A DNA stretch of 64,000 nt from assembly GCA_973895155.1 (NCBI GenBank), contig OZ316894.1, forward strand, positions 1,340,953 through 1,404,952. Direction: 5' to 3'. The DNA is from Marsupella aquatica (lineage: Eukaryota > Plantae > Marchantiophyta). The position numbers and the translations under genes were made by a program. The notes under the pieces were generated by a model. It did no database searches and was not told the DNA's origin. It saw only the letters and a list, made by a program, of their open reading frames with translations. Positions 25,060 through 62,030 of this stretch are shown piece after piece (position 1 is the stretch's first letter; the number at the start of each line of letters is the position of its first letter).

Positions 25060-25700
25060 GTGCTATTGGTCACAAACAAAAATGATTAGTTAATTATATG
25101 CAAGACGAGCCAAACTTGATTATCTGTGTTGGAGACAAGGCAAACAAAAACAGTTAGACCCCGTTACTCTAAAAACAATGGAACTCTGTAAACAATGGAA
25201 AACTGGAAAATAACACTTCAGATAAACAAAGAAATGGATAAAAGAAGGGTAAAAGAAAATAACCTTAGGATGGCTTGTGATTGATATATCCGTGTTTTTT
25301 GGTAAATTGTTTGAATTTCCTATTTAATTGGCAAATTTTTGAAATAACCAAGAGTAGAAAGAAAATCTTTAGCTTCTGACTATGGTAACATAAGAAACAC
25401 TTTCACTACTATGGCCAGAGGAATAACAAAGGAATGTAAAAAACCTTTTGGTTACTATGGGAATACCAAGAAAACATAAGACATTGGATACTATAACATT
25501 TTGCATGGACTCTATGGAATGTTACATGGGATGTATGATTGGACATAGGAATACTGGAGTAGCAAGCTAGGTAATGTTTGGTCTGTTACCATGAACAATA
25601 TCCTATTTTTGTCCTCTTATCTTCATTGATATTCAAATCTATTCCAACATGTTGAATAATAAAACCAAGGGGTCCTCAAACTAATTTCTTAGTTTTGGTT
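25060..25700 (+). repeat. Dispersed repeat family B (second, split copy at ~60720-61050 and ~61600-62030)
   Basis: Shared blocks AATGATTAGTTA, AAAAACAATGGAA, TAACACTTCA.ATAAACAAA, GATTGATATATC, AAATTTTTGAAATAACCA, GGT.ACTATGG and TGTTGAATAA. Confidence 0.7.
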
Positions 25701-26040
25701 TCCTAGTTTTGGTCTACCAACTTTCACTGTGTAGGAAAGTTCTGTTGTTTGTGCAACTATAATTGATGAAACCTATTATTGTCTAAATAATATGAAGTAG
25801 CTATTATACTCAGAAAAACTTTGGGAAGAGATTTATTTGAACCCCTTTGTATAAATAAAACAGTCCATTGAATAGAGACCTGCTCAAAACCACAACAACC
25901 AAAAACTAAGATAGTTCGCAGCACCTCAATGGAAGCATGGTAGTCTCGTGTGTCTTTGAACCCTTCAAGGTTCTTATGGAAAGGGGTCAAGGAAGCATCG
26001 CAATTCTCCACCATTCACCTGGTGGAAAGAAGGACATCAA

Positions 26041-26336
26041 ACCAACTTGCTTTGGTCAGTTGACCAGGGGATGAGCCTAGAACCAAGGAGATCCCAGGTT
26101 CAATCCCCCCTCCACTCGCAAGAGGTGTGGAGGGTATGTGTGGATGGGATGTCATGGTGGTCTTGGTTTCTCGGTCTGGTCCGATTTGGGGCCCTGGTGT
26201 AACCACTCTCCCACCTGGTCTGGGTCCCTGTCGGATCTCTGGGTATTGTCCCCTTGTGGGTACCCTACATAGAATCAAAGTAACTCTGGAGCAGGAAGTC
26301 TATCCTGTGTAGATTTTCAAGGCAAAAAACATAGAA
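26041..26336 (+). mobile_element. tRNA-derived SINE, copy 1
   Basis: A-box-like TGGTCAGTTGA, B-box GGTTCAATCCC, A-rich tail after TTCAAGGC, TSD AAGGACATCAAA (26030-26041 / 26337-26348). Homologous to 56908-57221. Confidence 0.8.
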
Positions 26337-40795: not shown

Positions 40796-43700
40796 TCAAT
40801 CATGTTTGGGAGAGCTGACTGTCTGATCCTTGTCCACCATTATATCATCTGGTGATTCTGGTGGTCTTCCAACAGTCTCTGCAGGAGTTGTTGTTAGTTC
40901 AGACACTGGCAAGGCAGCGTTGTCTACCGATACGCCGGGCCTTGTGATACAAATCCATTCATGAGGACCATCAACGTCGCTACCACGATCTTTGGGAATG
41001 TGCCACAAACCGTTCTCAGATTCCTGCAATAACAAGAGAGCTCGAAACATTGATTCCAAGTACTCAGATCAAAAGTTATACAAAATTGAAGCGCCAGATA
41101 GACCTTCATGTTCCCGTAGAACTGAACTTCAAAGTTCATACCACAAACCTACCTGGATTACTAACGAGTACGGTGGAGGTAAATGGAATTGTGGGCCTCG
41201 AGAAGTCGCTGAAAATCGGACCTGTATCCAAGAGATTTAGCATGCATGTCAGTTAATAACCATGCTTATTTTGATCAGACGCCGAGACGGTAACCCACCC
41301 GATGTAAAGAAAAATGATACTTCTTGGACTCTTAAGACTAAATGAAAAATGTAGAAGATGAGAATTGCAATCTGGCACCGGTTACGGTATCTCTCTCCTA
41401 AGCTTATCCATTTCAGGAACCTCGTTGGAACTTTACTACTTTACCACATACAATCATTCCATGACACAGCATCATTCCACATTCCAATCTGTGATCAAAG
41501 TCTTCCTAAAAGACTACAGATAAACAGTACCTGATGGCGTTCCTTCCACTTAGGGAAAAAATCACTGCCAAGAAGCTGGAAGAGGTGATCACGCATTTCA
41601 TCGTTTGTTATCAACAAACACCTATTCCTGACAGCGGCATACATCCAATACCTGCACAAAGGCTCTATTGATAGTTAGGAACTCAGAATCATTCCGTGGA
41701 GAGCCTACGAGCTCGTACGAAAGGCTTGACGTCAAGAACATTAAAAACTTGCAATAATACGGACCACAAATCACGCAATCTTGAGTAATTTCAACCCATG
41801 TCACTAAATTTGCTTGCAGACTTGTGACATCTCTCTTACATCAAGAGAACATCCAAGCATGGTACAGCGAAAAAGACACTTGATAGACACACCAAATAAA
41901 AGATATGTAACCTCAAGGACCAGATACTAACCAGTCATCATTTGATCCATAGGGGGTTGTATACAATGTATTAGAAGAGCTCCATTGTTTAAGAAGTTGC
42001 CGGCCTAAGGGAGAATTGGCAGCTCCAAATTTGGTTCTTGCATGATGGAGGATAATGAGAGGAGGCTTTTTCACTAAACCTAGGTTCAGTGCAGCCTGTG
42101 CCACTGACTTCAACTGCATACAACACGCAGCCTCTGATTAAGTCATGTTCAGTGCGTTAAGTATGTATGACACCGTCAGGAAGCTAAGCCCATACTGCAT
42201 CAGTCTACAGAAGAGATAATGGTGACGAAGAACGAAATAGATAGCATTTTCTAAGCCAACTCAGACTTTGAAGAACATTGATAACCTGAAAGAAATTAAA
42301 GCCACCCTGTTGAAAATTTTGATTGTGCAGCCCAACATTTGCGCCGTCAATAATTGCATCAAATGGTCCATTTAGTTCCAGCCACTCCTGCAATTAGCCA
42401 TATGGTCCAAGGAGATATTTACCATGACACAGAATACAGAAGAGCAATAACACACCGACCTGAATCATCATTGGCAGAGTCAAAAGAACGAAAGAAAATC
42501 CGAGACAAACTAACAACTGCAGCAGATGCTGTCACGATAGGCAAAGCCAGAAGGAACTAATCAGATTGTTCTGTTAGTAGATCTTCTTCTTACCCGAAAC
42601 GTTGTAAAATCATTTGGTTTCGTCTCCCTGGCAAAAGCAATCTCTGCTACAGACTGAGCAAAATCATCCGTTTCTTTAGAATCCAGATCGATGGTAACTA
42701 ATTTGTTTTTGCATGAGCGACAAAATCCCTCGTTGTCAATTGTAGTCCACTCCAACTTCCACGCCCCTTTACCGAGCCAACCCAATCCATGCCACCCTCC
42801 TCCCCCTGCTACCATAGCGTGATGAAGAGCCGAAATATCGGGTTGCTGTTCCCACTCTCCAGCTGACGCCCCTGCCTGTCCTGAAAACCACTCTTCTATG
42901 GAAGAAATAGTGCTTGGAGATAGTGCCCTTACTCGAGTCCTTAATCTATGCAACAATGAATACAGTTCCTTCTGCAACCGTTCCTCTACACATAGTTGTA
43001 GAAGAGCTCCCAACTCTGGTTCTTCGGGCTGTACACCGGCGGCCACCATATGGGCATCCACCTCGAAAGCTTTCTCCACTGCCTTACTTTTACAGAACGT
43101 AACGAGAGCAGGACCGTAGGACCTCAGCTTAGGAGCAATGTTTTGGACTGCCATCTCCTTTACCATCTGGAATGCCATGTCCCCATCTTCCTTCTTTATA
43201 GCCAACCTTGCCACTGCCGTCAGCGTTGCTTCATTTGGAGACACTCCTTGCTTCTTCATGTCCTCGAAAATCTCAAATCCTCTCTGCCCAGCCATCTCCA
43301 TTAATTCTGGGCTCAAGCTAATGGGAATGATAGTAGAACCCTGTCTGCTCGTTGCCTCTCCATTGCTGTCCCTATCCTGTTGTTCAACCCCATTTGCAGA
43401 TTCTGAAGGCAAAGTTGCATCCAATCCTTGCTCTGAGGATTTAAGGTTTAGACGCTCCGCATCAGCCCTCTCAGTAGCACTTTTGCGAGCTGTCAGTGTT
43501 CCCAAGGCGGCTGACGAGCAAAGATATAAAAGTATGTTGAAGTTGTACTGGTTCCAAGGAATAACTCCTTCAGAGACTGACTGGTCGTAAATATCCAAGG
43601 CCCGGAGGACATCCCCGTCCTTAGAGCAATTGTTAAGGTCTCTCCGGAGTTGTTCCGTAGGTGGAAGGACTTTCCTTTTGCGTTTCGTCTCCTTTTGCTG

Positions 43701-44690
43701 CCTCGTTTTGGGTTTATCACTAGCCTGCTTTAATTGGTTCAAATTTTGATTCAAATTCATGGCTGATGAGGCAGCGGGGAGGACTTTTGGTATGAATTTA
43801 TGGTCCCCACGCAGCTCCCTGACTGCAGCAGACGCGGCCCTACTGAATCTACTCCTCTTCACTAAATTCGGTGCTCTAGAAAGCTTACCGATAGGTTTCG
43901 GGGTGCTGGATTCGGGAATGTCACTTCCTACAACTACCAATTTCCCACCGAATTGTTTCGACGAATTGTTCACGCCACGAAAAGAAGGTCGGCGTCTATC
44001 AAATGATTCATTTCCCGACCGCCCGTCTTTCTCTCTAGAACCCTGAGTACTAGGTTTACCAACCCTCCTCTTCGATTGCCCTTCGGCAGAGGAAGACGAC
44101 GATTCCTCCTCTTGAAAAGTACGCTGCTGAACTTTTCTTCCGCTACTGGAGGCCTTACTGGCAATCGTCACACTCCTCCTAGCAGATGCTGGTTGTCTAC
44201 TGCGACTTGAGTTCTCCACCTCAAGCTCAACTTCAGGCCCACCATCCGCTTTCAAGCTCCTTATGGGAATGCGGACTGTCAACAAGGAGGGTCTCGGAGG
44301 TGCGATCCAGCTCAGGTACAGAGCTCTCCTCGAAGCGAAATCGAAATGGCAAGCCAATCTGCCCACTAAACAATCAGAAGCAGCAGGAGTATTATTAGAA
44401 TAGAGTGAACTTGCTAGAATCTCAGCAGGGCCTGATCGAGAGGAGGAGTAGACCCTAAACCCCGAGATGGTAGCACAGGGACGTTGAGCTTGGAGTGGCT
44501 TCCTGCCAATGCGATCGAGCCACCAGACCCCGGAGCAGAAGAGCCTTCTCCTGGAGTGGAGAAACAACGACGACGCGGACAACCTTATGAGGCAGGAACT
44601 CGCCCAGAGGTCCGGCATCGGAAACGGTGTGTGCTCTCTGTGTGTCAACAATCCTGGCAGCAGCTGAACTTCTCCATAGAGAGACACCAT
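40796..44690 (-). CDS. PRORP: Proteinaceous RNase P (PPR repeats, Zn site, NYN metallonuclease) with long N-terminal extension
   Basis: Exons 44690 (or ATG 44618)-42594, ~42388-42286, ~42114-41927, ~41650-41531, 41222-41154, 41023-40796. Motifs: PNEATLTAVAR, PKLRSYGPAL, GGGWHGLGWLGKG, CRSC, DGANVG, GSNDDW-YWLYAA, TNDEMRDH, KWKERHQ, PPPYS.VIQES, WHIP. Confidence 0.95.
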
Positions 44691-44872
44691 GAAATGCCCA
44701 CAGGTCCGGCATCGGGAAGGACTGTGCTCAGGCCAATCCTGGAGGCTGCACTTCTGCACAGCGAGAGACCACGAATTTCATGATGGTGAGAGCTTGCGAG
44801 ACCTCCTTTTCCGATGAGGAGTTCATTGGGTCGAAGGTTGGGGATGCTGCTGAATGAATTCATCGATAAAAC

Positions 44873-45410
44873 CTCGTGAAAGTGGATCATGGCCGGATCT
44901 ATCTAGCCCAAGTAGTTTCAACAATTCTGTTTGAGCAGAGGACCACTTGAGTGGGGCCAAATCTACAACTAAGGGCTTGCACTTTATTTAGTCCTTAGTC
45001 CCAATACAAAAAAAGCTCCTGGGGCGAGAAAGATCCATAGACCTTGGATTCTCGTGAAAGTGGATCATGGCCGGATCTATCTAGCCCAAGTAGTTTCAAC
45101 AATTCTGTTTGAGCAGAGGACCACTTGAGTGGGGCCAAATCTACAACTAAGGGCTTCCACTTTATTTAGTCCTTAGTCCCAATACAAAAAAAGCTCCTGG
45201 GGCCAGAAAGATCCATAGACCTTGGATAAGATCCATAGACCTTGGATTCAATTAGCTGTTTTCCTGACCATTGATAAAAGAATTATGCACCCCTGGCACA
45301 TACGTGCTTCCCCTGTCAACATCCATAGACCTTGGATTCAATTAACTGTTCTCCCTGACCATTGATAAAAGAATTATGCACCCCTGGCACATATGTGCTT
45401 CCGCTGTCCC
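44873..45410. repeat. Nested recent tandem duplications in the PRORP upstream region (178 bp x2, then ~90 bp x2)
   Basis: 44873-45050 is nearly identical to 45051-45228, and 45231-45317 to 45321-45408; ATCCATAGACCTTGGAT recurs four times at the junctions. Confidence 0.9.
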
Positions 45411-45889
45411 ATAAATGCCCCGGCCGGCCCTCCTTGCATAGTGCAACGCACTGGCATAGGGCACGTGTTGCATAATAGACGGATGCTCAGAGACAAGTGG
45501 GAGCAAAAGGGCAAGAAGGTTTTCATGGATCCCATTTCTCCAATGTTGGCTTTTCAGGTTAGTGCTCAGTAGGGCTTTAGAGGAGTCTCACCGGTTGAGC
45601 TATTTGCAACCGAGTATTGGGGTCAATGGTGCGGTCACTGGCATTTGGGGTTGTCTTTGGCTGATTGCACCCCACCAGTCGCAATGAGTGAAGTGACACT
45701 CTCAAAGGTCTTGGCAACAAATGAACCTTTTACAAAGATTAAACAATCGGGACCGTCCAGACACACTTCGACAAGACTGGGTGGCAGCAATAACAGCATC
45801 CTGCAGCTTGCAAAGTCTGGCGTGTTAAGCAAAGATGCTACTCACCAAAGTATGCACATGTGACCATCCTACGAACAAGTAATTGACAG

Positions 45890-46080
45890 CACGAGATATG
45901 TGGATTGCCTCCTATATATGAGGTTATGTTCAGGAGAAGACACAAAAGTTGTACAATGAGCCTGAGTTTACACTCCACAAGCTAACATTACTTGTGTATA
46001 TGTATGCACTAACCAAGTCTGCGCCTACAGGTAGCCTAACTACGGTTACATAGTTACTCTAAACTTAAGAGTAAATCCCT
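45890..46080 (-). mobile_element. LTR-like repeat copy D (degenerate)
   Basis: ACAATGAGC.TGAGT and CCTAACTACGGTTA.ATAGT...CT.AAGAGT match copy A. Confidence 0.4.
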
Positions 46081-48323
46081 CACATGGCTAACGGAAGTCA
46101 CCATTTGCTTGGCCCGGTGCCCAGTTTAAATTTTATAGGGCATGGTGGAAAATCTGAAAAGGGCTTTAGCAAGAGCATGTAGCACTAAAGTTGCTCCTGG
46201 CCGAGCATTCCCCGTGATGGGTGTGAATGCTACAATCTTCACTGTGATTAGTCTTACTAATTCTATTTGGAGGACTGATCAAAATATGGACGTCTAAAAA
46301 TTTTAGCCTCCCCTATGTTAATTTTGCAGTGACACTATTTACATGTGCATTAAACCACAGCTGCCAGTATAAAAGGGCCCGTGGTCTGCCCGGCTCATCA
46401 TTGTTTGCTGCCCGGATGTATAGTGATCCCGGGTGAATAGCTCCGCGGCCCGGCAAGTGATCCGCAATCCTCTCCAACCCGGCAAGTGATCCTCATTCCT
46501 CTCCAACGCTGCCTCCAACGCTCACGCTGGGCTGTGGTGTTCTTCGTTGCACATCAGTACTGTAGAATCTCCATAGCTGCAACTTACAATCAAAAGTTCA
46601 GTCATCATTCCTCGCGTTGCCTGTCACCCAGAAAATCTGGGACCTTCGTTTCTACACAATTCCATAAGCAGTCGACGATGAGCTACTCGATCCTAGAGAA
46701 GATGTTGCCTTCCTTCGATTAGTAGGTGAGTCGATCGACCATGAGCTACATGAGCTACTCCAATTTGGCACCACGAGTACCGACACTGCATCTTCTTCTC
46801 CTCCTTTGACTCTTGGCCATCCAGCTGATTCGGATAGGCGTATCACTCTAGGATTCCGAGACCCCATCCTGCCTGGTTGATGTATCTGGAACAGCTTCTA
46901 TGATCTTATGATTCACTCATAAGATACGTTCAAGTCCGGTCAAGAGCCTCCCAAGGGTTTAAAACCAAGATTTAGACTATTGTTCGTTCCCAGAGCTTTT
47001 TGTTGAGCTTCACTGAGCACCGCGTCATAAATTAATACCTAATGTTGTAATCCAAGTGCATCAATTGCTGCCTGTGCGTCAATTCATCCAGTTTGGTATG
47101 ACGTCAAACAGCTCGTTTGTCATCTCACAACCTTCGGGCTGCGCATTCGCTTCTAAGTTCGAGCCCTCTCCATAATGACGCCCTTTGACAGGATTCTCTG
47201 CTCTCCTCCGGCGACCTCCAGCCTCTCGATAACTCTGCTCGACTGAGAATTTCATGCCGACTTGAATCTTTCCAATTCTGCCGATCCTCTACAACTGCTT
47301 GAAAACAAGACGAGGCTGCACGGACAGAATCATCGGCGCGGAAATTTTCACTGAGCAGGGAGCTCCTTCGTGGGAATTTTGGGCAATGTCTCTTGCTCTC
47401 ACAAGTGTCTGTCCTTATGAACGTATGAAGGAGTAGGAGGTGGACCTGGATGTAGAGCAGGGAGCTCGGCCGACACATGAAACTGTGTGAGTGAAAATGT
47501 AGTCCAGACGACAGCACTTGACGAAGCCAGTGCTTACGCCCATCTCTCCCCTCATTTTTGAGTGATTACGTAGCGCGTCGCTGACCAGACCTTCCCTGAG
47601 CTTTTGCACTCATACACAGTGCTTCTCGAAAGTTGTTGCCGTTGCCCAGCCCTCCCTTGAGCTTTTCCACTCATACACAGTTGCTTCCCGAAAGTTGTCG
47701 CCACCTTTTTCTTCCAAATTTCTTTGGATCAATCAATCTTGCTACTCGGATTGGCATCGTTCACTACATTCGGCTGCGTTTTAGTTGAATTGGAACTAGT
47801 TCCACTCATGGTGTTGTCACCAGGGACTGTCATCAGCTACATGTGAATTCAATTTCTTTTTGATTCCTTGCGGCGCCTGCTGAACTGCAGTGTCGACAAC
47901 ATCATCGTGTCTACCGACAGCAAAATTTGTTGGGACATCGAGCCCTCGTTGTTGGATAAAATTCTGACTGTACCTTGTCTCCAAATATTTTTTCAAAGGT
48001 ACAAACTCAATTCGTGACGCCGAGGCCGAGGGAAGAGGAGGAGGGAGGATAGTTGGTCCTACCCTCACAACTATTTCAGGAAGAGGAAGGATAGTTTGCG
48101 TGCCGGGATAGTTTGCGTGCCGAGGGAGAGGAGGAGGAAGGCTACTCGGTGCTTACCCTCACGACCATTTCAGGTTCTCACCCAAGGGTTGGGTGATTCC
48201 ATTCTTACTCCACATCAACTGGTCCCCCTTTATTGTACTACTATAGCTTGAGTTCCACTATAGAGAGTATCATCGTGACCTTCTGGTTGAAATGTTTACT
48301 TTTTCAGAGTTTTGTGCTTGCAA

Positions 48324-48961
48324 ATGGAAGAAGATGGAACCAGGATCGTCACGTTGGTCATGGCTTGCAATCAACATGTCAAAAAAGATTGGCGTTATTG
48401 GACAGTTCCTTTTATGAAACCTTCACAACAATTGATGATAGTTGGCAACAAACATAGGAGTTGTGATACTTTGAGGTAATTTTTTTACCTCAAATTGTTG
48501 TTATGTCATTCCACTCCTTGACTTTGACTAACATCTACTTTCTTTATGGCAGTCCGCGAACAATGGCCAACAAGCACAGGACCAAGGTCACATTGAATCA
48601 ATGCGATGATGGGTCCTTTGTATTGCTTTGGCACAATGCCCAAGCTGAACACGAGGCTCCTCCCATCCAACGTAGGACAAACTTAGACGAGATCCGATCT
48701 GATTTCCCTGAGTTTTGTCGTGTCGTCACACAATATCACAATGCACTCAATCCTGTTGTACCTTTGGAACAAATATTGATTTGTGCTGCATATAGTTATG
48801 TGGATAGTGTGATGAAGCGGAAACGCTACCAAGTGTACACGCACTTGGCTTGGGTATGTGGTTATGCAGAGCGAACAAAGTTCCCAGATGCAGTGGAAGC
48901 AGTCATCAAAGCAACATGGCATGACCCACATGAGGAATTTGTAGGATTTCGTCCATATTAG
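48324..48961 (+). CDS. KolX-like accessory protein 1 (related to the P2X7 intracellular ballast domain)
   Basis: Exons 48324-48475 and 48553-48961 (phase-2 intron, in frame; alternative start ATG 48563). The C-terminus KRYQVYTHLAWVCGYAERTKFPDAVEAVIKATWHDPHEEFVGF fits the KolX pattern R..Y....W..G...R...P..V...I...(F/W)..P...(Y/F).GF. Convergent to the transposase. Confidence 0.65.
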
Positions 48962-49024
48962 TCTATCATATTGTAATGTCCTTTGCTTACTTATAATATA
49001 AATAAATCCCTTCTTTGGGATTGA

Positions 49025-49070
49025 ACTCTCGCTGGTCGGCAGCACAAGGGGTTCAAATCCCCTTGGGAGT
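49025..49070 (+). ncRNA. Predicted mini tRNA-like structure 1 (no anticodon arm)
   Basis: ACTCTC/GGGAGT acceptor-like stem, GCTG-GTCGG-CAGC hairpin, AAGGGG-TTCAAAT-CCCCTT T-arm; ~63 nt after the KolX-1 stop. Confidence 0.55.
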
Positions 49071-49429
49071 ATTTTGCTCACACACGTGATAATAAAATCC
49101 ACCTCTTTTGGTCCCTAGGTGTAATAAGTTATTCCATGCCAAAAGTATGGGCCGAGTATGGGCTGAGTATGGGCCAAGTATGAGCCAAGGGTTGTGTAAG
49201 CCCCAAGTATGGGTCAAGTGAGAACCAAGGCCTGTGTAAATGCAGGATTGGTCGCTATTGCTTCTAAACATAGCATGTCCTCAATCTTACCCCAAAGTGG
49301 TAATGAAATTATTTCTACTCATTCTCACTCCAAAGTTTTTTCATTCTATGTATGCATATGTATGCATATGTTTTAGTCTTCCTTGTACTTAGCTTGGTTT
49401 CCAACCTAACCTTCTTCGTTTCGGGCAAC

Positions 49430-49933
49430 ATGAATTATCTAAGGTTCATTTCATCTTTGCTTTGTCAATTCTTATTCATGATATTTTGCTGCATTACCTA
49501 TCCATTGTTTTCATTATTTGTTACCAATTGCAGCTATTTTTTGTGGCATACCATGTGTAGGGAGGATCCAAATAGACCTGCAGAGATGGTATCCTACGGT
49601 GGGGGATTGTATCGTTTAACATGGCCGGTCACTCCACCTCAGAAAAGGAGGGCTCTTCTTTTGAGGCATGATGATATTGTTGCAAAGTTCTTAGCATTTT
49701 GTGAGGCCATTGACAACAACCTTGTTGAACTCAACGCTGCTCTTCATTCTCCATTGCATGCTGAAGTCTTCCACATGTGTGCGGCTTGGTCTTATGTTGA
49801 GGCCATTCCTTCTCGTCAGCGTCATGTTGTTTCTGAGAAATTGGCATCAGTTGCCAAATTCTTGGAACCGACAGCCCTTCCAGGGAATCTTACATCTGCC
49901 ATACATGCCACCTGGAAGACACTTGGCGAGTAG
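49430..49933 (+). CDS. KolX-like accessory protein 2 (diverged paralogue, 128 aa)
   Basis: Exons 49430-49443 and 49561-49933 (phase-2 intron as in paralogue 1). Aligns with paralogue 1: G.(F/Y).L.W, D.I...F..FC, CAA(Y/W)SYV, LA.V, P....(V/A)I.ATW. Confidence 0.6.
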   Translation: MNYLRFISSLLCQFLFMIFCCITYPLFSLFVTNCSYFLWHTMCREDPNRPAEMVSYGGGLYRLTWPVTPPQKRRALLLRHDDIVAKFLAFCEAIDNNLVELNAALHSPLHAEVFHMCAAWSYVEAIPSRQRHVVSEKLASVAKFLEPTALPGNLTSAIHATWKTLGE

Positions 49934-50149
49934 CATGGTTGATACTTTGTTCTTCATATTTTGGAGTTGGGTTTGTACTTGGTTGTTTTATGTGTTTTTA
50001 ACTTTTTGCTTCTCTTTTCTTCTCTTTTACTTTATCTCTTTCTTCAGCGTTTCTTAACTCTGTCAAGTATAGGATTTATCTGGGTTATTTGTTATAGCAT
50101 ATTTTATATTTTTTTGGCCTGTGCCTCCTTCCTTATCCTTAGGGTTGGA

Positions 50150-50196
50150 ACTCCTGTTGGATGGCAACAAAAAGGGGTTCAAACCCCCTTGGGAGT
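50150..50196 (+). ncRNA. Predicted mini tRNA-like structure 2 (no anticodon arm)
   Basis: ACTCCT/GGGAGT stem, GTTG-GATGG-CAAC hairpin, AAGGGG-TTCAAAC-CCCCTT T-arm; ~216 nt after the KolX-2 stop. Confidence 0.55.
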
Positions 50197-50858
50197 AATT
50201 GTCAACTCAATTGTACCTATGTTGTGAGTATTCTGTTGGGAAACTTTTCACATATGAACTTTTCTCATCCATTTTAGTTTGGCAGTACACCCCATATACC
50301 AAAAGAAAAAGCTTGTCTAGGGAATGGTTGGTTCTCCAACCTTGGATACACACATTCAAAGCATAGTCTGTTTTATCATAATAACATTTTGTGTTTTATT
50401 TCTCTATAGAAGATTTGTGTTACTTACCAAACAATTGTGTGTACAAATTAGGGTTTTATGTACCATATTTTTGTTATATTGGACAAAATTTATATCTTCA
50501 ACAAATTTGGAATCAATAACAAACAAATAGTGGGAAAGGTAAAACCTTTTCATATTATGAGACAAAAGTTGCATCAGTGTGTTACAATGCTCTACATGCT
50601 AAATACTAAAAAATCCAAGTGCCCCCTACAACATAATGGAAGTAAAACATCCCCAGGTCTTACTTGCATGTCTTCAAAGAAACAACCCTCTGCAATTATA
50701 ACATACAATCAATTCATGAAACAATTAGACCACTTGTCAACATACATAAAAACTGAGGTATCTAGTCATTTAACCCACCCTCAATCCAATGTCTCTAAAC
50801 AAAAACAAATGTTATTGTATAGGCAAAATATAATTACCTCATATATGTTGGTTTAGGT

Positions 50859-53800
50859 CTAAGGTACTCCATAGATACGTAGACTTGTTTGCTCCTTCCA
50901 ACTTGTGGTACGATCCACTAATACTCGTGAACGAGAGGGTCTATCACGAACAACTGTGTTTACTGCTCGACGATCACGAACCTTCCAAACATGTCTCCTA
51001 ATATTTTCATTCCAGTCCATAGCAGTACAACATAAACGCGCATCGTGAGTAGCTGGAAAATGAATACGCTTTATGGCATACTTGCCCATTACAGAATGGA
51101 ATGTTTCAGACATAAAGTTCTCACGAGCCATGGTATAAAATCGCATTTTTTCTGGCTTTATGTACTTGGTCATGAAAGCTTTCATGGCCTTGTGAGTTTC
51201 CCCATCTGCATTCCAAAAGAAAAACTGGTTATTTATCTTATAATTACTATGTCATGCAACATCCAAAACATAATATGAATTTGTCTCAATGCAAAATCAT
51301 TGAATATTTGTGGCACAGTATTTGTTTTACCTCTCTCATAGTACAAGTCCAATTGTAAGGCATTAGATTCTCCAAGATGCTGACAAGGCCGATCAGATAG
51401 TGTCATGCACTTTTCATGGTCACCAGCCCAATGATCTGCACAATTCCCTAACTCAAAAGCCAAGGATTCACTGTCTCCACTCCTGCATTGCAAAGTAGTG
51501 AGAATTTTTTTTATAAACAAGCTATAAATTAATTTTCATCTATAAAATATCTATCAAGGTATTCCAAAGATTATATAAATCAAGGTAGCATTTCAAGCAA
51601 TGTGCAATACTTTTGTAATATGGCACACCTGTTTTTACATGTTCTTGAACACACATAGAACCAGGTCTTAAATTTGCTTGCCAAATTATGCTCCGCTAAC
51701 TCTGGAAACTTGAGACCACGGGTGGCAATGTGTACAAGCTCCTCCTCAGGAAGCCCACGCAAATCCGCAACTCGATGAATTAACGCTTCCTTTCTCAAGT
51801 TAGAGTAACCTCTAATACCCCTATCCTTCAACCAGTCTTTCAACTTTTTATTTGTAACTGCTTGCAAATCAGAGCGAGATGTCACAGTGTCTATGTCAAC
51901 AGTTAGGGTAAATGTGGCACTTGCCAACTTGTCCACAAATTTCCTCACCAAATTTTTAGCCTTGTGCCATAAGTCCTTCTGGTTTATAAATCCCATGTCC
52001 TCAATGATTTTATCAATGGTACTTTTGTCATCATGGATAACCTCTTTTATAACAACTCCCGCATCCGTGAGACTATCTAGTACCCTCTTTGCCCCAATTT
52101 CTTCCATGTACCAAGAGTTTCTCTCCTCTCTTCTACTTACAGTGGTCATCTGAAGGACCCTATTATCGTAGCTATCAATGATAGAAGAAGTACCATGATA
52201 CCCACTCCGAGAAGAATCCCAACGACAATCTAGAAACACAACTAGTCCAGGATCTGCAAGAAAACCAAGAATATATGATGTTGGGTATAAAATTATTCAC
52301 AAAAAACCTAAAATTTATTCAATCAAAGTCCAATGTGTAAAGGTTGTTCATGTTAGAGCAAAACTACGAAATAACAATAAAACATGCTTTTGTTGTACAA
52401 ACCTCATTGAAACAAGTTAACTAAGTTATATATAAGCTTAATTTTCTTGTATAATAGTTTCATTTACAAACCTTCATGAGGTGCACATTGCTGCTGGAGT
52501 CGAGTTTTTACATCTTCCCACACCTCACTTTTGTTTACCTCCCATTGCTGCTTTACAGCATCTATCCATCCTGCTTGAGGTCGTCGTCTTCCACTTTGAA
52601 AATCATGCCAATGGGTTGCAGAAGGGACATGCAAACCTAAATGTGATGTCAATGCGGCTAGAGCTGTAAATGTAAGACCAGCACATAAAGTGGAATGATA
52701 TAGCATAGGAGTAATCAATGGTGAATTCCTTCCCGACTCATTCTCACCAGTCACAAACGTCCACCCATGTCCAGCTTGCCCACAACTAATCCTAATAGAC
52801 CACACTTGTTGCAACTCTCCAATACGCTCCACAATAGGAGTCAATGAACATGCAGGTATATGACACCTAGGAAGTAGTCTTTGAACAAAATTATGAATTA
52901 AGTGTCGCTCAAAAAATGCTATTGTAGCTGGTCGACGAGGTAGAGACCTACGTGAAACTGGTGGGTCAGAGGTACTAGGTGGTATTGATTGTGAGTTTGT
53001 AACTATTGATGGTTGCAAGGCAGGTCGTTCTGGTGATTGAGAATCCAAGACTACATCCTCCTAGTTCAATACAAATATTTACATAGTTAGAAGAATTGAA
53101 ATAAACACACAAAGTGTGATATGTGAAAATAGAGTATGCTTTGAAAAAAGAAATGTGTAGGGAATGTAAGTTGTTGCACCTCCTCCACAACATCCTCATG
53201 TATGGGAGCTCCTAAAGCATAATGAACGGTTGTATCTTCATCTCGATACATGGCTTCATCCTCTGCATCTGATGAATATTGTTCAACAATATGCTCTTGC
53301 AATTCCTCTTCCTCTTCCACTTGTGCATCACTTGTTACAGATTGTTGACTCTGTCAAAAGTAGCCACACATGTAATAGCATTATGGACTGGTTATTGTTT
53401 TGGAAAATAGGGCTTGAAAAAGTCCACATCTACAAACCCCAAGAGAAACTTATCCCAAGACAGCCCCGAAGACAGCACAAGTTTCAAAAAAGGAAATTTT
53501 ATTTGCAAGAAAGATTAAAATCTTGTATGCCTGTTCTAGATGAAAAACAAACATATAAAGACATAACAAAATTATCTATTTAAACATACATCATGTAAAT
53601 TTGTATCCTGGTAATGATCCTCTGAACATTGACTGCTCCTAGGATTCATAAAGGTTGACGATGCTCCAATGTCTGTCGCTAATGCAAGTTCATCTTGTAG
53701 CATTCTAGCGGGCGCTGCTTGCCATGTCCTCAAATGCTCAACCCTATCTCGCACTTCATGAAACAACCACTCAATGACAGCTGAGTGTGTAGTATGTTCA

Positions 53801-54000
53801 TCACCAAGTAAAACTCTCAATTCCTCCCATTCACTCCACAAGTGAAGCGGGACTCGGATTGCAGGCCTTGCATCCGGTCTCCGAAGCCTCTTATAGTCTA
53901 TATCATCACTAGGGTATTTTTTCCGAGGAAGGCCACCACGTTGAGGGGGCCGCTTCCGCTGGTCTGAGACACGATGACGTGGGTCATCCTTTGTAGACAT
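50859..54000 (-). CDS. Kolobok-type DDE transposase, six exons, 764 aa, apparently intact
   Basis: Exons 54000-53590, 53350-53180, 53060-52472, 52253-51629, 51482-51331 and 51205-50859 join in phase (2295 nt, no internal stop). Motifs LDCRWDS (cf. DGR.DS), MEEIG, IHDD, DLWHKAKN, HWAGDH..C, SETFHS...KY..KR..F....ARL...MDWNEN; N-terminal RHH-like segment and C-x4-C...C-x4-H zinc motif. Confidence 0.88.
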
Positions 54001-54059
54001 GGTGCACAAATATAGTCTTTACCGCATTTGCCTAAAATCTCATGAGCTGGAAAAAAGGT

Positions 54060-54888
54060 CAGATGTCAAACATAGAAGTGTGCAAAGTATGTGAATATAA
54101 AAATAATAACATGCAACAAAAACTATGTAGAGTGACCAGTGCATAAATAATGTAAAGGATTCAATCATTCGCTCTTTATTCCCCTTTTATGTTGTGGCCA
54201 ATTGATATAGGTTTTATCTCGTAGTCTCCCCATTATACTTTATCTTAGCTCTTCCTCACATACCAAGCGCAAATTCTCTCTAAAAACACAGCCACATTGT
54301 TGAGAGCCGAGAGGACTCTCCTTCTTCTACAAGTCTGCACAATTTAGAAAAAGCAGATAATTGTCAAAACACTAGCTAGCCCCCTACTCATGAGTGTGAC
54401 TCTGCACAATTTAGAAAAAGCAGATAATTGTCAAAACACTACTGTAGCTAGCCCCCTACTCATGAGTGTGACTCTAAACAGATGTCAAACATAGAAGTGT
54501 GCAAAGTATGTGAATATAAAAATAATAACATGCAACAAAAACTATGTAGTGACCAGTGCATAAATAATGTAAAGGATTCAATCATTCGCTCTTCATTCCC
54601 CTTTTATGTTGTGGCCAATTGATATAGGTTTTATCTCATGGTCTCCCCATTATACTTTATCTTAGCTCTTCCTCACATACCAAGCGCAAATTCTCTCTAA
54701 AAACACAGTCACATTGTTGAGAGCCGAGAGGACTCTCCTTCTTCTACAAGTCTGCACAATTTAGAAAAAGCAGATAATTGTCAAAATACTAGCTTGCCCC
54801 CTACTCATGAGTGTGACTCTGCACAATTTAGAAAAAGCAGATAATTGTCAAAACACTAATGTAGCTAGCCCCCTACTCATGAGTGTCG
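54060..54888. repeat. 419-bp near-perfect tandem duplication upstream of the transposase ATG, each unit with an internal ~68-bp duplication
   Basis: CAGATGTCAAACATAGAAGTG starts at 54060 and 54479; TCTGCACAATTTAGAAAAAGCAGATAATTGTCAAAA occurs four times. Confidence 0.92.
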
Positions 54889-54929
54889 GTCAGTTTAAAA
54901 AAAAATGATTTAAAAAACACGGAGATTGT

Positions 54930-55135
54930 CGAAAGCCTCCACTCTTCCGACCATGCACTTACAATTGAAATGTTGAAAGCCTCCCCCACTTCCGACCATG
55001 CACTTACAATTGAAATGACGGTAAAACGTAACTCACGTTCCTTTCGACTGTAGCGCACGTTGGACCTTTCGACTGTAGCGCACGTTGGACCTTTCGACTG
55101 TAGCACACGTTGGACCTTTCGACACACGTTCCTTT
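54930..55135. repeat. Short subterminal tandem repeats (~44 bp x2; 25 bp x3-4)
   Basis: GAAAGCCTCC....TTCCGACCATGCACTTACAATTGAAATG twice; CCTTTCGACTGTAGCRCACGTTGGA three times plus partial copies. Confidence 0.9.
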
Positions 55136-56377
55136 CAATACTACTAGGCACATTCCTTTCGGCTGTGTAGTGCACAATCCTTTGCACCTTGTGCGCCACA
55201 AAATGTAACGCGTATGCAACAACGCCTGCCGACGTTGAACTCGGCACCTCTCACCCGCAAAGGAAACGCACTACCAAGAAGTCGTCCGGACTGTTCGGAA
55301 ATTGTGAGTAAGTACTTGTATTCATACTGAAGCGCAGCGCCAGCTTCAGCCAAGGGTAGTGCAGGAGGCACCCTGGTCCTTCCACCTACCTCCGCTCTCC
55401 CGTAAGTGACAAGATTCAAAAAGAAAGGGCCGCGCAACCATCGGCGCCGCTGAGGCTCGATCCCAGGATCTCCTGCGCTCCAAAGAGGGCCACAACCAGT
55501 AGAGCCATGCGGGCTGTTCGACTGAAATCGGAATCCAGTAGTATATGACCATTTATTTAGTTTAGAAAAGCTCTCTCCACCTGGTGTCCGTCATGCCAGT
55601 GCTTGCTTTCCTTTCCTGGGCATTCCTTGCGGCGCGGCCATCAACTCTCACCCTCTCACATAAGCGCCAGCCCTCCCCTCGCCAAGTGTCGTTGATCCTG
55701 CCAAGGTCACCAGGTGTTTGGTGAGTTCGGAGACTTCACCGACCCCCTCCTGCTCAGGGAATCTCCTTGCCCATCCACCCCGTCCTGGCCAAAGGCCTTC
55801 GCACAAGCGTAGAGCCAAAATAAGCAGAGTTTTGAACTCACGACGTCTCGATTCGCAGGGGACGATGCAACCAATGTGCTATCTAATCGTCATACCTGTA
55901 TTTGCGGACCCATCTGTATCTAAACATGTATCAACCCGGTAAGAAGGCCTGCGAAGCCCGGCTGTCTAGCCGGGCTGCCCCAAGGCAATCCTGCCCGCGT
56001 GCCTCCGTTTTTTCCGGATCCTAGCGAAATGCGACTTGCCTCTGTGTATAATGAGAGGCTACGGGTAACCCGTAGCCTCTTATACTGGCAGCTGTGGTTT
56101 AAATGGAATGTGGCTACTAGTAATTAAAGTGTTTATATATGTACAATTAATTCACTGTGTGTCTGCAAAGCCTCATTTGTGATAGAAAATTAAAATTTAG
56201 GGTTATGGAAAACAACATATTGTGAATCCCCATTGCAAAATGGACGAGTCAATCAAGATTTCTGTTCATCAAACAAATGAACAAAGCAAATCAATGAATC
56301 TTTCAACCACAAATACTATTTCAGGTTACAAATGATCCACAATTATTGTTATTTGCTTGTCAAAAACCTATTCACTT

Positions 56378-56532
56378 GATTTAGACTTACTAACACTAAT
56401 TGAGTGAAACGCTATTTGTGACATAAGACTAATGGTAGTGAGTAGTGTAGTGGATTTAGACTTATACTAACACTAATTGAGTGAAACACTATTTATGACA
56501 TAAGACTAATGGTGGTGAGTAGTGTTGTGGAT
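56378..56532. repeat. ~75-bp tandem duplication
   Basis: GATTTAGACTTA..CTAACACTAATTGAGTGAAAC.CTATTT.TGACATAAGACTAATGGT.GTGAGTAGTGT.GTGGA twice. Confidence 0.85.
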
Positions 56533-56907
56533 CTTTTGCGGTTGTAAGGGCTAGGGTCTCTTGGGCTTTTTGGATGCTTGGGCTTCCTGGGTTTTTATCC
56601 AAGTTGTGTTTTGTGCTCTATTGGTCTTTTGCCTGTGAGGTACTTTGTCCAGGTTTGGATTTCCTTAAGAGTTTCAGAAAAGGCAGGGACCACCTGAGTG
56701 GGGCCTAGTGCTCAATAATATATGGGAGCTCAGACATAATTGAGAGCAAAGGTCACACTTAGGTTCATGGATGCCATTCCTCCAACGTGGGCTTTTTTAT
56801 TGATATATAAGTAGACTCCTTTCCCTGCACATGATTTCCTACCTCATAAGTGCAAATTTTACTCTGCACAAAAATGACTTGCATTTATCTTAGAGTGTAA
56901 GTAGCAG

Positions 56908-57221
56908 AACCAACTGGCACTGGTCAGTTGGCGAGGAGATGCGCCTAGAACCAAGAGGTCCCAGGTTTAATCCCCCCTCCACATGCAAGGGTTGTGGAGG
57001 GTGAGTGTGTGTGTGTGGGTGGGGTGTAGTGGTGGGAGTCCTGGTTTCTCCTCAGCCCCTGCCTACTTGGCTTTGGGGCTCTAGTCCAACCCTCTCTCCC
57101 TCTTGGTACTGGGTATGACCCCCCTTGTGTGCTACCCTACAGAGGTGCATGCTCCGGAGTTGATTGTCTATCCTCTGTTGGATGGGTCAGCTTTCGATAT
57201 TCAAGGCAAAATAAATAAATA
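56908..57221 (+). mobile_element. tRNA-derived SINE, copy 2
   Basis: TGGTCAGTTGG A-box, GGTTTAATCCC B-box, body homologous to 26041-26336, tail TTCAAGGCAAAATAAATAAAT, TSD TAAGTRGCAG (56898-56907 / 57222-57231). Confidence 0.8.
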
Positions 57222-60200
57222 TAAGTGGCAGGAAATGTGTTTTGTACCAATAAGTGTGCATATACCTTTCTTCCAGTTCATGCAAGTGTAAATTTTTAGT
57301 CTGACTAGTGCAACCCTCTTTGTGTTTGAAAAACTGCAAAATAATTGGGGGGAAAAGAAGACTTGGATGCCGTGCAAGTACCCAGGGTTTGTGCTTAAGG
57401 AGTGTGTACTTATTGAAAGGTCACCATAGTGTAGATAACTCTCAGGGTTTTGGCTCCTTGGGCTTCCAGACGTTTTCCCTTGAATTCTCCCTTTTATTGA
57501 GTCTCTTGCCTTTGTTGCTTTTTGTCTTGCTTTTTGTTCTTTGACATTGTGATGTAAATGTGGAGGAAGACCTATTACAAACTGTGCATTTACATGCCAT
57601 TTCTCCAACTTACCCAAGTGCACGAGCTTTGCTCGTTCACACATCATTTGCCCAACTAGTTCCACTTCCACCACTTTGTTCTAGACTGTAGGCCCGACTG
57701 TAGGCCCTTAGCTAGCTGGCCCATTTTGAGTTCCACCACTAGAGTCTTGGTCTAGAGGCATCACTCTAGACCATAAGCCCTTGCCCTAGCTTCCAACTTT
57801 ATGAGATAGATGTAGACAGAGGAAGAACTACAAAATAGGGTCCAAGGTTCTATCCAATTCCCTCTCCCTCATATATTACAACAACAGTGCAGCCTCGAGT
57901 GCACCTAATGCATGCTGATTGAACCCTAAAAAGTACTATACCTGTTTGAGTGGGTGACAAGGTGGGTGAAGCAATTGAAGATGTTCTAAGGGTCCGTGGC
58001 ATTACATGCAAGACTCTGACAAGATAATTATGGGTTTTGGGGAGTTAGCTTACTGACTGTATTTTTCCAGTTATTACTTGTGAGCTTGGCCTAATAAAAG
58101 TTCACATACTTTACAAAGAGAGTATGCTCTAGCTATTCTTATTTTGAATTTTAAATGACACATTTTACTTTATTATAGATCATACCAAATATTCTTTTCT
58201 TGCGACAACCCTAGCTGCAGTGCACCGTCCATGTCAAAATGCATGCTCCCAGCTTGAAGACACCACGAGCCACAGGATATTGTTTATGCACTTCTCTATT
58301 TGTACGGTCTGCACTATGTAATAATTACATAGGAAATCTGTTGCCCGTTGTGTCATCAGGTCACAAACATCAGACTCCTCATACCCCAAGCCCTCATATT
58401 ACAATTTTCAACACTAAGGCAAGAAACTACTAACTTTAAGTAGTTGTGTGCTACACTTACAGACAAATTCTTGATATGCATGCATTGCAGTAACTAATAC
58501 ATGATCGCAGCCAACAATACACAATTGATCAGATCTGATTTCATACATATGTCAAGCCCTAAGCACCTTTCACTCAATGAATGCACTTGCATCTGCACAA
58601 AACCTGGTCAGCCACACCATAGCCACCAAAGCTCATGCTTGAAGGCTCAACATCAAAGGATGAAGCCTCCAAACCACCACAAGTTAAGGGATTTACAAAT
58701 GAAACTTTTTACAGCAAGGTATACATGGTGGCCTGCATTTATTCATGCTGCACTTAGACACTCTTCACTGTATTTGATTTCAAACACTTTACAAAACTTT
58801 GGTCACATAAAATACCAATAATGGATGACACGTGATTTCAATGAGTTTTTGTAGTTAGACTCAGTGAGGACATGGGGCCCAGTGTCTTGTTACGCCCTCT
58901 AAGATTACATCTGGACCATATAATGAGTGGATGTTGTTGCAATGAGCATTACAAAAACTCAAGGTCCCATCCTCTATGCTGAGGGGTGGGCCAAAGTATA
59001 TGTTGATATGGAATGCTTATTTTGTTGGGTGTGGGCCCACGTATATGTTGATATGGAATGCTTAATATTATGGACACGGACCTTTTGAGATCTCCATAGA
59101 TGGTCCAAACAAACTATGGCTCCTTCATTTAAAGGATTTGCCTCGGATATGCAATTATTGAAGTTCATTTCAGAAGATTTTTGATCTCAAGTGTACCTTT
59201 AGAACCACTGGGCATCCAAATTTGCTTTGGCAAAAACAAGCTACAAGTGCCCCAACGTCTTGTAAAGCCACTCTAAAGTCATTTTGTAAGTGTGGCTTTA
59301 CTAGACGTGAGGGGCCTGTTGTATTCTAAATATTCCCTGTCAATTAAAATTATACATGGACAAAATGGGGACAATATAATTAATGCAAATTATTGCAGTT
59401 GGCTTCTATAATGAATGGAAATTAATTATGGAAATTTCTGCAGTTGGCTTTACAATTAAGAACTCAATGAAACATTCAGGTATGGTGCACGTACCAACCG
59501 TGCATGGCAAGGGTGGTCAAGACATTATTTGGCAACCTTCATTCAAGATTAGCAATTATTGAAGTTCAATTTAAACTATTGTTGGTGTGGAGTCTAGCGT
59601 AAAACAAGAAGTTTCCCTGCCTCCAGAAGTCACTAATGCTTCCAATTTCTTGTAAAGCCACCCTAAGTACGTAGTAGAGTTTTGTTTGTTTAATTCCTTT
59701 CTAACTTAGGGGAAACTGGTGTGGAGCAAGCATTAAGTGACTTGGAGGCCAGAGAAACTGGCAAAGATGTTGTTTAATTATGGATAGGGCTTAGAGCAAT
59801 ATTGTTTAATTACCAAAAAGTATGTGGAATGTATTATGTGCCACAGGCCCTTGTATTACAGTAGAAGAAAAATTGTGAAATTAATATATGTGAATTAATT
59901 CTAGCAGTCCAATTCTCTTTAAGACTCCAATGAACATTAGTCCCTTCAACTTAGGTTGTGTAAAAGGGCATGGCCCTGGTTATTGAATAGCAAGCACAAG
60001 ACGGGGAAAAGTTGCCCAACCAGGGATCACAAGAGACATGCAAGGTGTGCTGTCCATTGGCCAAGTGAAGGAAGGTGGAGCACACCTACTCAGGCTATGA
60101 GACCCAAAACTATGAAATCAAGGACTTGCAAACCTCTGTTCATAGTAGTTGAAGGGTTTCTGACATACTCTTTATTATCTACTCCTATGTCCATAGTAGC

Positions 60201-60719
60201 CAAAGTGTTTTTTATGGGAGTTCTTATGATACATTGGTAGATGTTACAATAGTTGAAGAGTTTCTTTTCACCTATGCTTATTTTACAAATTTTCCAATTA
60301 ATTAGAAATTCAAACAAAATACTGAAAAACACTGATATATCAATCACGACCCAATCATCCAAAGGTTATTTCCTTTTACCTTTGTTTTCAGTTTTTGTTT
60401 AGTTGAAATGTTACCTTTCAGTTTTTCATTATCTTTACAGTTACGGGGCGTAGTTGTTTTTATTTCCCTTGTCTCAACCCAAATACTCACGTCTGGTTTT
60501 TTTTGTGTAACTAATGGTTTTTGGTTGTGACCAATTGTGTTGATGAGCTACACATGCTTCTAAAGATTGTGGAAGGAGCTTCACATGACGGGGGTGCGGT
60601 AACCATGGGGGTTTGGTAAGGGTTATAATTTGTCTGTAAAGACAAAGTTTTGATACTTACATACCCCCATGGGAAGCTCCTTCCAAAATCCCTGAAAGCA
60701 GGTGCAACCACGTCAACAC

Positions 60720-62030
60720 TATTGGTCATAAAAAAGAATGATTAGTTATCCAAGAAGGACCAACATGATTGTTCTTGTTTGAGGCAAGACAAAGAAAAAC
60801 AACTAGATCCCGTAATTGTAAAAACAATGGAAACTGGAAAGTAACACTTCAAATAAACAAAAGACATGGGTAGAAATGGGGTAAAAGAGAATAACCTTTA
60901 GATGGGTTTTGATTGATATATCAATTTTTCAAGCAAATTCTTTGGAATTTTATTCAATTGATAAATTTTTGAAATAACCATGGATAGAAAGAAACTGTTC
61001 AACTTCTGTAACATTAATTACCATGATAATGTAAGAACTCTTTGGCTATATAGCATGCTCATCCTTGAACATGCTTAATTTTTTTGTCTTGTAGTGATCT
61101 GAAAGTAAATAAAATATGAGAGCATAGAAGTGCTGTTATATAAGGAAAGTGTCTGCCAAGAAAAGCACAGTGACCAAGAAAAGGTACAGTCAAATCATGC
61201 TACGATGTGTGCACTTAACTCAGGGTGCCTTATGAATGACACTCCTTTCAATAAAAACCATAAACCTAGGAAAGAAAAACATGAGGAGAACTTAAGAGAC
61301 TATGCATTCATGTTCTTCAACATCATTTCTCTCACTCGTGGTGGTGGAGCCTTTGGTTTCATCTCTAAGAAAACACATATTGTCAAAGGGGCTGCCAAAA
61401 TAAGTTCAAAACACTCTAGAATACCTCATCCTCAAACTAAAGGGGTCTAAAAATTAATTAAAAATGTATAGAATACAAAGGCTGCCCCTTGATAAGGCAG
61501 ATTGAAATGAGAATACATGACACAAAAATCTGAATAAGACAAAATCTGAAATGTGCATTCACCATATTAGCAGTTTCAAAATCTTAGATCTTATGGACAG
61601 AGGAATACTAAGGGCACATTACTAACCCTTTGGTAACTATGGAGAAATGAAAACCAAAGGAACCTAAGAAACCCTTTGACTTCTATAATGTTTTTGCATG
61701 TATTGTATAGAATGCTACATGAACATATTAGTATCAAGAAACCCTTTGACTTCTATAATGTTTTTGGATGTATTGTATAGAATGCTACATGAACATATTA
61801 GTATAAGGGAATGTTGTGACTAGACTTGTACCATGAATAACCTACTCTTTGTCTGCACTGAAATGGAAAGTGTTCTAACTACCTTCACACCCCCACTTCA
61901 GTTACCATCCTCCATTTAATCTTTCTCATCTCCATAGTCAAACCAATATGGAACTCTTCATCTCTCCAACTTGTTGAATAACATCAAGCTTACATAACCA
62001 AGTGGGTAACCAAGGGGTACTCGATATAAT
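60720..62030 (+). repeat. Family-B repeat interrupted by a family-A repeat (~61100-61570), plus a 70-bp tandem duplication at ~61667-61804
   Basis: Flanks match 25060-25700 collinearly; the middle matches 6190-6770. Confidence 0.65.

Follow-up and report, generated by a model that had tools for sequence, protein, structure and literature searches.

The window analyzed here, a stretch of 64,000 nucleotides (nt) from contig OZ316894.1 of the liverwort Marsupella aquatica, carries a Kolobok DNA transposon of 9.7 kilobases (kb; 46350-56102, flanked by TTAA), and within it two small tRNA-like elements, here called mini-tRNAs, each placed behind one of two related accessory open reading frames (ORF1 and ORF2). 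The locus raises the question of what a tRNA-like element does behind the coding sequence of a mobile element. Our analysis identifies the pair as a real and selected mimic of the tRNA elbow, of the mascRNA type, which follows KolX-like coding sequence in a Kolobok transposon, and it is highly probable that it works as a functional tRNA-mimicking RNA of some kind. Published work is cited by its PMC accession, in each case for the passages that concern the point at hand.

Two mini-tRNAs behind paired coding exons

The preliminary description of this locus had placed both elements 3' of the accessory ORFs on the sense strand, and their coordinates and letters proved to be as claimed (Table 1). 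Mini-tRNA 1 starts 63 nt past the end of the ORF1 exon and mini-tRNA 2 starts 216 nt past that of ORF2; each is preceded by an A at position -1 (49024 and 50149) and followed by a discriminator A (49071 and 50197). The hairpin said to stand ahead of each element was likewise found. A descriptor of the top half of a tRNA, written after the elements had been seen, was then defined as a 7-base-pair (bp) acceptor, a 3-bp D stem with a GG-ending loop, a 5-bp T stem and a TTCRA loop. It matched exactly twice in the 64 kb, both times at the two elements, compared with a mean of 0.007 matches in 150 dinucleotide shuffles of the window, none of which contained two. Moreover, when 14 kb of the window (44000-58000) were searched against Rfam with cmscan, the two elements were the best two of seven matches, both over the full model of RF01684 (mascRNA-menRNA), with scores of 29.3 bits (E 0.016) and 26.8 bits (E 0.071) that lie under the gathering score of 42.5. 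ARAGORN called no tRNA gene in the window, so that a cloverleaf with an anticodon arm was not recovered, and a model built from both elements found no third copy there, its best other match scoring 11.8 bits. The two elements are not a product of chance.

Regarding the strand, the plus-strand assignment made earlier is borne out by the T loop, the GG of the D loop and the Rfam matches, but not by folding energy alone, which for element 2 is -17.0 on the plus and -17.1 on the minus strand and gives no preference. Single-sequence folding z-scores are modest (-2.7 for element 1 and -1.2 for element 2). As to the fold, the twelve bases at the 3' side can pair in three registers (5+7, 6+6 and 7+5), each of which yields a 12-bp stack of acceptor and T stem. 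The 6+4+6 fold first proposed is one of these, but a 7+3+5 fold agrees better with mascRNA and with a G>A change at 50156, which other copies of the element show in all four public assemblies described below and which turns pair 7 from G-U into A-U. In the 7+3+5 register all 15 of 15 pairs form in both elements, with one two-sided and two one-sided changes between them.

In that register the elements correspond position by position to the mascRNA crystal structure (PMC11693755). The acceptor takes positions 1-7, an 11-nt D stem-loop (8-18) abuts it without a linker and holds G14, G15 and the G10-C16 pair, and the 17-nt T stem-loop, with its UUCAA, supplies the T-loop C that pairs with G15 and the A of the C16-G10-A44 triple. 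These features are shared with mascRNA and menRNA, from the 3' ends of the vertebrate MALAT1 and MEN-beta (RF01684; PMC11693755, PMC8457004), which also sit downstream of an RNA whose 3' end would be defined and which are the best Rfam match. In contrast, mascRNA has a 15-nt anticodon-like hairpin (positions 19-33) where the elements of the window have a linker of 4-5 nt, and it is preceded by a nuclear-expression element (ENE) plus an A-rich triple helix, whereas short hairpins precede the mini-tRNAs. The latter also differ in following protein-coding exons, in belonging to a plant DNA transposon and in that their cutter would be a protein-only RNase P (PRORP). The mini-tRNAs are not members of RF01684, given their score, the absence of an anticodon-like arm and the absence of an ENE, and their likeness to mascRNA is most likely convergent rather than orthologous.

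Table 1. Features of the Kolobok transposon, in window positions, with the basis of each assignment.
Feature	Positions	Strand	Basis
Left end: terminal inverted repeat with the TTAA target duplication (46350-46353)	46350..46376	+	27-nt inverted pair, 96%
Predicted common coding exon upstream; starts at ATG 48324 and has 50 codons and 2 nt; splice donor GT at 48476	48308..48475	+	Phase; inferred
ORF1, KolX-like exon, predicted last exon 1	48553..48961	+	Protein family
ORF2, KolX-like exon paralogous to ORF1 (predicted last exon 2); AG of its acceptor ends at 49533	49534..49933	+	Identity to ORF1, phase
AATAAA ending 18 nt ahead of predicted RNase P cut; overlaps TATA-like tract	49001..49006	+	Kept in diverged copies
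6-bp hairpin, would cap the cut 3' end	49005..49022	+	z -2.2, 5/200 shuffles
Mini-tRNA 1 (46 nt): acceptor 7 bp, D stem 3 bp with 5-nt GG loop, 4-nt linker, T stem 5 bp with UUCAAAU	49025..49070	+	Fold, Rfam, descriptor, depth
Interrupted hairpin adjoining second predicted cut	50126..50149	+	z -1.8, 10/200 shuffles
Mini-tRNA 2 (47 nt): 7/3/5 fold as mini-tRNA 1, 5-nt linker	50150..50196	+	Fold, Rfam, descriptor
AATAAA, candidate poly(A) signal of the transposase gene, about 200 nt past mini-tRNA 2	50395..50400	-	Inferred
Kolobok-type DDE transposase, intron-containing, convergent with the KolX-like gene	50859..54000	-	tblastn exons, motif order
Right terminal inverted repeat and TTAA (56099-56102)	56076..56102	-	Inverted-repeat search

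Conservation of the element across diverged copies

We then compared the two exon-element pairs with each other. ORF1 and ORF2 are 34% identical over 94 amino acids (aa; E 1e-14), and their third codon positions, agreeing at 32 of 118 sites, are saturated, while the mini-tRNAs are identical in 40 of 49 columns. The 3' regions behind the ORFs resemble each other at chance level (z -1.6 and -0.3). They had been called unalignable, which holds for most of their length but not for the 25 nt directly upstream of the elements, which are weakly alike (z 2.0; 16 of 500 shuffles).

Further copies were sought in four public DNA assemblies (runs), which come from two studies under two organism labels and one of which may be the source of the window itself. 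The four hold a family of diverged transposon copies. In all of them, over the interval 48995-49100, the contig depth summed over element 1 was 2.9-5.1 times that of the upstream flank and 4.6-7.1 times that of the downstream flank, with steps at 49024 and 49071, that is, at position -1 and at the discriminator, and many short contigs span exactly 49024-49071 with 5-6 differences. Many diverged copies therefore keep the 49024-49071 unit and nothing beside it. In addition, the core of element 2 is kept in a diverged copy (runs X2 and X4) whose preceding 222 nt are unalignable (joint 49947-50170). Loose contig ends showed other upstream contexts, in one of which an AATAAA stands 17 nt ahead of the element, compared with 18 nt in the window. 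One copy, whose GG and T stem bear G>A and C>T changes, looks decayed. In one X1 contig a second copy lies 11 nt past the first with no T-run between them, a tandem arrangement like that of a processed array.

Such additional copies could also mean that the element came into the Kolobok as a passenger, being a short repeat derived from a tRNA or a fragment of another mobile element, and was then duplicated together with the exon. The flanks of most extra copies were indeed not found in this transposon, and the 3' 20 nt are those of the 3' ends of real tRNA-Glu/Asp genes: of seven viral loci that matched a pattern of the 3' half, six lie inside genes that ARAGORN calls as tRNA-Glu/Asp, the seventh (L001) being the 3' remnant of a tRNA. 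Nevertheless, the element has outlasted synonymous saturation between the exons, and every change in its stems keeps the pairing. Moreover, depth over the element at 80% identity is 2.0-3.5 times that of the highest transposase bin (peak 2.3-4.1), a rough ratio, as contig depth is not copy number and the bins differ in width, but one that suggests 2-4 mini-tRNAs per transposon rather than a high-copy short interspersed element (SINE). The common unit of 48 nt is also too short for a SINE, and the SINE-like repeat of the window is unrelated, not being matched by the model of the elements. Altogether, we regard a passenger as very unlikely. Descent from a high-copy SINE found apart from Kolobok, which the preliminary description had named as fatal to its proposal, is not seen as far as the copies are visible, a minority of them with their flanks. 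The SINE-like repeat just mentioned is itself tRNA-derived and occurs in two copies (78%; 26040-26172 and 56908-57050) with A- and B-box-like motifs.

Scans beyond these assemblies gave no related element with flanks from another species among viral, metagenome and genome contigs. A looser viral pattern added 85 stretches, none of which passed the fold descriptor (0 of 92 viral loci in all). Of 111 metagenome matches, 110 were 33-nt sites with at most 3 acceptor pairs, resembling the variable and T arms of actinobacterial tRNA-Ser; a relaxed ARAGORN search called a tRNA in 80 of the 111 contexts, and the only true mini-tRNA among them was on contig L131. The 17 pattern matches in genome contigs were all 33-nt actinomycete sites, 16 of them with a tRNA call. 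No viral or metagenome locus from the pattern scans codes for anything related to the six protein pieces of the element. The case of L131 (1234-1280, plus strand) is a 45-nt anticodon-less mini-tRNA, 99 nt past the stop of an ORF on a phage-like metagenome contig; its D-loop and T-loop letters are those of the window elements, and at 38 bits it was the best match of the model outside the window.

A candidate cut signal for RNase P and RNase Z

To place the elements in a gene, we considered the exons ahead of them. The region of the upstream exon is common to diverged copies of the transposon, and the roughly 100 nt that follow are unalignable. This exon ends in phase 2, and the acceptors of both ORFs are of phase 2 as well (48552, chosen by eye, and 49533, from a splice-site scan); the stretch 49233-49569 is not common to diverged copies, and no conserved exon belonging to ORF2 alone is apparent. 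Most simply, the two ORFs may be alternative last exons of one gene, with a hairpin and a mini-tRNA behind each, which we prefer to a dicistron because the acceptor of ORF2 shares its phase with that of ORF1 and no conserved exon belongs to ORF2. The suggestion that the elements split a dicistronic transcript is weakened by the same two facts; we rejected it on the shared-phase acceptors and because an uncapped downstream piece of RNA is not translated.

Both mini-tRNAs carry the features published for PRORP substrates, namely a 12-bp stack, the D-loop GG, A-1 and A73. For PRORP3, a nuclear enzyme of Arabidopsis, the anticodon arm is dispensable and the D domain helps binding; the enzyme sets its cut by measuring from the T loop along the 12-bp acceptor and T stack, irrespective of the pair at position 1, and A-1 together with A73 doubles efficiency (PMC4797305). 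In both elements the T loop has 7 nt (U54 U55 C56 R57 A58) and position -1 is unpaired, with the proviso that in element 2 the upstream hairpin may pair it, and whichever register is taken, the cuts are predicted at 49024/49025 and 50149/50150. Because each of these features published for PRORP3 is present, we lean towards the elements being cut signals for PRORP and RNase Z, which would form the 3' ends of the accessory mRNAs and block read-through into the transposase gene. Mosses have a nuclear PRORP, which is not their sole nuclear activity (PMC4201334).

The proposed sequence of events would start with transcription of the region from the plus strand, after which the upstream exon would be joined to ORF1 in one isoform and to ORF2 in the other, each isoform then ending at the mini-tRNA behind it. 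PRORP would cut just ahead of the element and RNase Z just behind it, after 49071 and 50197. The new mRNA end would be shielded by the adjacent hairpin, and isoform 1 would probably be polyadenylated under the AATAAA 18 nt upstream. The 5'-phosphate left downstream would admit a 5'-3' exonuclease, and transcription would thereby stop some 200 nt short of where the transposase gene has its 3' end, which may limit double-stranded RNA and silencing, and an RNA of 47-48 nt would be released that may gain CCA. A comparable arrangement exists in plant mitochondria, where t-elements, tRNA-like structures near mRNA ends, are cut by PRORP and RNase Z, and some are CCA-tailed without being aminoacylated (PMC1920247, PMC11658184). 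These are, however, organellar, gene-specific and degenerate whole tRNAs, whereas the elements described here are nuclear, minimal, strongly conserved and borne by a mobile element. A pairing of leader and trailer like that of MALAT1 was considered separately and rejected, as no conserved complement was found by eye.

Several points weigh against a cut signal. ViennaRNA places the 7+3+5 register some 5 kcal/mol higher than its minimum, and the probability that it assigns to the acceptor stem within 166 nt of context is about 0.2 in element 1 and 0.6-0.7 in element 2; folding models of this kind ignore tertiary contacts and coaxial stacking. Covariation from two sequences is not significant (237 of 500 shuffles reach the score), and gene conversion could add to the likeness of the two elements. 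The upstream flank of the commonest extra copies occurs nowhere in this transposon and may belong to other repeats. Mini-tRNA 2 has no AATAAA, and no ENE or A-rich tract was found upstream, either among the seven Rfam matches in 14 kb or by eye. The main gap is how a cut mRNA would stay stable and be translated without a triple helix.

A further point on that side is the TATA-like tract of element 1, at about -33 to -22, which together with its T4 after the discriminator and its perfect B box would fit a small RNA polymerase III gene. The product of that gene would be a tRNA-like RNA acting in trans, e.g., by decoying proteins that bind tRNA or mediate silencing, and the part of PRORP and RNase Z would be limited to maturing it; such a gene would account for conservation being confined to the 48-nt unit. 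However, element 2 goes without a T-run for some 50 nt and lacks a TATA at an equal distance, the downstream flanks of the other copies inspected contain no T-run, and the tandem copy follows after only 11 nt. Moreover, the distance from the D-loop GG to the B box, about 10 nt, is much shorter than that of tRNA genes, and the siting of an element after each coding exon is left unexplained. We consider such a gene quite unlikely.

It is also conceivable, if unlikely, that the mini-tRNA escapes cutting and serves within the 3' untranslated region as a signal for binding or stability, acting as an exonuclease block or in translation or cell-to-cell movement, in the way of the tRNA-like structures of plant viruses or mobile mRNAs. 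Structural conservation would be equally expected in that case, a second AATAAA (49091) lies 20 nt past mini-tRNA 1, and tRNA-like structures serve as mRNA mobility signals in vascular plants (PMC8166872). Nevertheless, the exact 12-bp stack, the unpaired A-1 and A73 and the free ends make a near-ideal PRORP substrate, whose escape from cutting would need explaining. In addition, there is no AATAAA downstream of element 2, and the relevant passages of PMC8166872 report no tRNA-mRNA dicistrons in Marchantia or moss.

The remaining alternative, proposed in the preliminary description, is a function at the DNA level, in which a B-box site for TFIIIC would serve as an insulator between the accessory gene and the transposase gene or heterochromatin. 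Both T arms do match the B-box consensus. Yet the conserved stretch begins 24 nt ahead of the B box, continues for 12 nt behind it and breaks off at the ends of the acceptor stem, which an insulator does not explain, and the stem changes are neutral for pairing, none of which a DNA site would need. This weakens the alternative to the point where we hold it to be highly improbable.

The Kolobok host, its surroundings and wider meaning

That both elements lie inside a Kolobok transposon, as first described, was confirmed by the TTAA duplication and terminal inverted repeats of the superfamily, both present, and by the motif order of the transposase. The likeness extends to the Kol0 group with KolX (PMC9587614), which shares the TTAA duplication, short inverted repeats, a DDE transposase with DxxH and a zinc finger, and perhaps an accessory gene related to the P2X7 ballast domain. 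The rule for Kolobok termini, 5'-RR and YY-3' (PMC9587614), is not satisfied, as the element ends in AC..GT. Contigs that connect 46349 with 56099, and thus represent the empty target, were found in three of the four runs; the short side of these joins has 28-29 letters, and either an allele or a paralogous repeat is possible. Land plants are absent from the Kolobok hosts listed in PMC9587614, and the element at 46350-56102 represents a Kolobok lineage in liverworts.

The only relatives found for the transposase were two proteins of Riccia sorocarpa (35-36% identity). Its residues follow the order D, D, DxxH, zinc finger, E, judged by eye to be the Kolobok order given in section 10 of PMC9587614, and a Pfam scan of it matched no transposase family. 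A SAP-like insertion (51583-52296, minus strand) separates DxxH from the zinc finger in the transposase and in its Riccia relatives; PF02037 (SAP) was detected in P0002 and P0003, and the Kolobok passages of PMC9587614 do not mention such an insertion. The viral contigs searched contained no relatives of the transposase exon or of ORF1.

The family of ORF1 and ORF2 comprised 43 proteins in a profile search, and among the 20 members looked up, 8 bear liverwort names (Calypogeia fissa, Riccia), the rest being hypothetical or nameless. These relatives by themselves point to a liverwort as the probable host. A distant member, P0037 (profile match E 5.3e-7), carries PF20478, the P2X7 ballast domain (E 8e-12), as the only one of 41 family matches scanned. 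The C-terminal 46 aa of ORF1 align to P0037 with 33% identity, and ORF1 itself has no PF20478 match; its likeness to the ballast domain is thus transitive, through P0037, and limited to the last 50 aa or so. The term KolX-like, as used in the preliminary description, is accordingly justified for these residues and not for the rest of the protein. The seven conserved zinc-binding cysteines of KolX were not found, and the family alignment shows no conserved cysteine cluster; cysteine-poor KolX forms have been described in piggyBac elements (PMC9587614). A predicted structure of ORF1 (pLDDT 73) had no Foldseek match at E 0.001 and a best Z of 5.2, and the PDB searches by sequence brought up no match with E under 0.3. 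P2X7 did not appear in the matches listed, which is not evidence against a relationship.

The transposon further contains, upstream of the transposase gene, a 419-bp tandem duplication (54060-54886, 98%) with nested 72-bp repeats, as well as other short tandem repeats (54939-55166 and 49138-49228). Outside it, a long imperfect palindrome (60241-61014, 71%), related to 25001-25459, is probably a non-autonomous element. A PRORP gene (42561-44690, minus strand; PF17177, E 1.5e-68, and PF16953) starts about 1.7 kb from the left end of the transposon. Its proximity is probably a matter of chance in one recent insertion, the class of enzyme being that of the predicted cutter, and we rejected a causal link, as this is a single insertion whose target is empty in three of the four runs.

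The claim that no such element had been described in a DNA transposon agrees with our search of the open literature, which found no report of one, with subscription journals and Repbase lying outside its coverage. Neither tRNA-like structures in Kolobok nor mascRNA-like elements turned up in any report in that search, and the word tRNA is absent from the main text of the one Kolobok and KolX paper (PMC9587614). In nuclear RNA polymerase II transcripts, 3' ends made by RNase P are described for MALAT1 and NEAT1 only (PMC12941219). Few non-tRNA substrates of PRORP are known (PMC4919922).

Taking these results together, we tentatively propose, as a possibility on which we would not yet insist, that protein-coding mRNAs of a liverwort Kolobok may be ended by the PRORP and RNase Z of the host at a minimal, convergent counterpart of mascRNA, which would select the isoform and terminate transcription before the transposase gene. 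If true, this would be a natural nuclear protein-coding mRNA with an RNase P-made 3' end, MALAT1 and NEAT1 being both non-coding and vertebrate. It would extend the mascRNA type of mechanism to another kingdom and another type of enzyme, and provide a natural non-tRNA substrate for nuclear PRORP. Moreover, a natural 46-nt cassette for RNase P and RNase Z, without an anticodon arm and with weak RNA polymerase III promoter character, could serve as a compact spacer in multiplex RNA arrays in plants. For the transposon itself, it would represent a new way in which a convergent two-gene DNA element limits antisense and double-stranded RNA.
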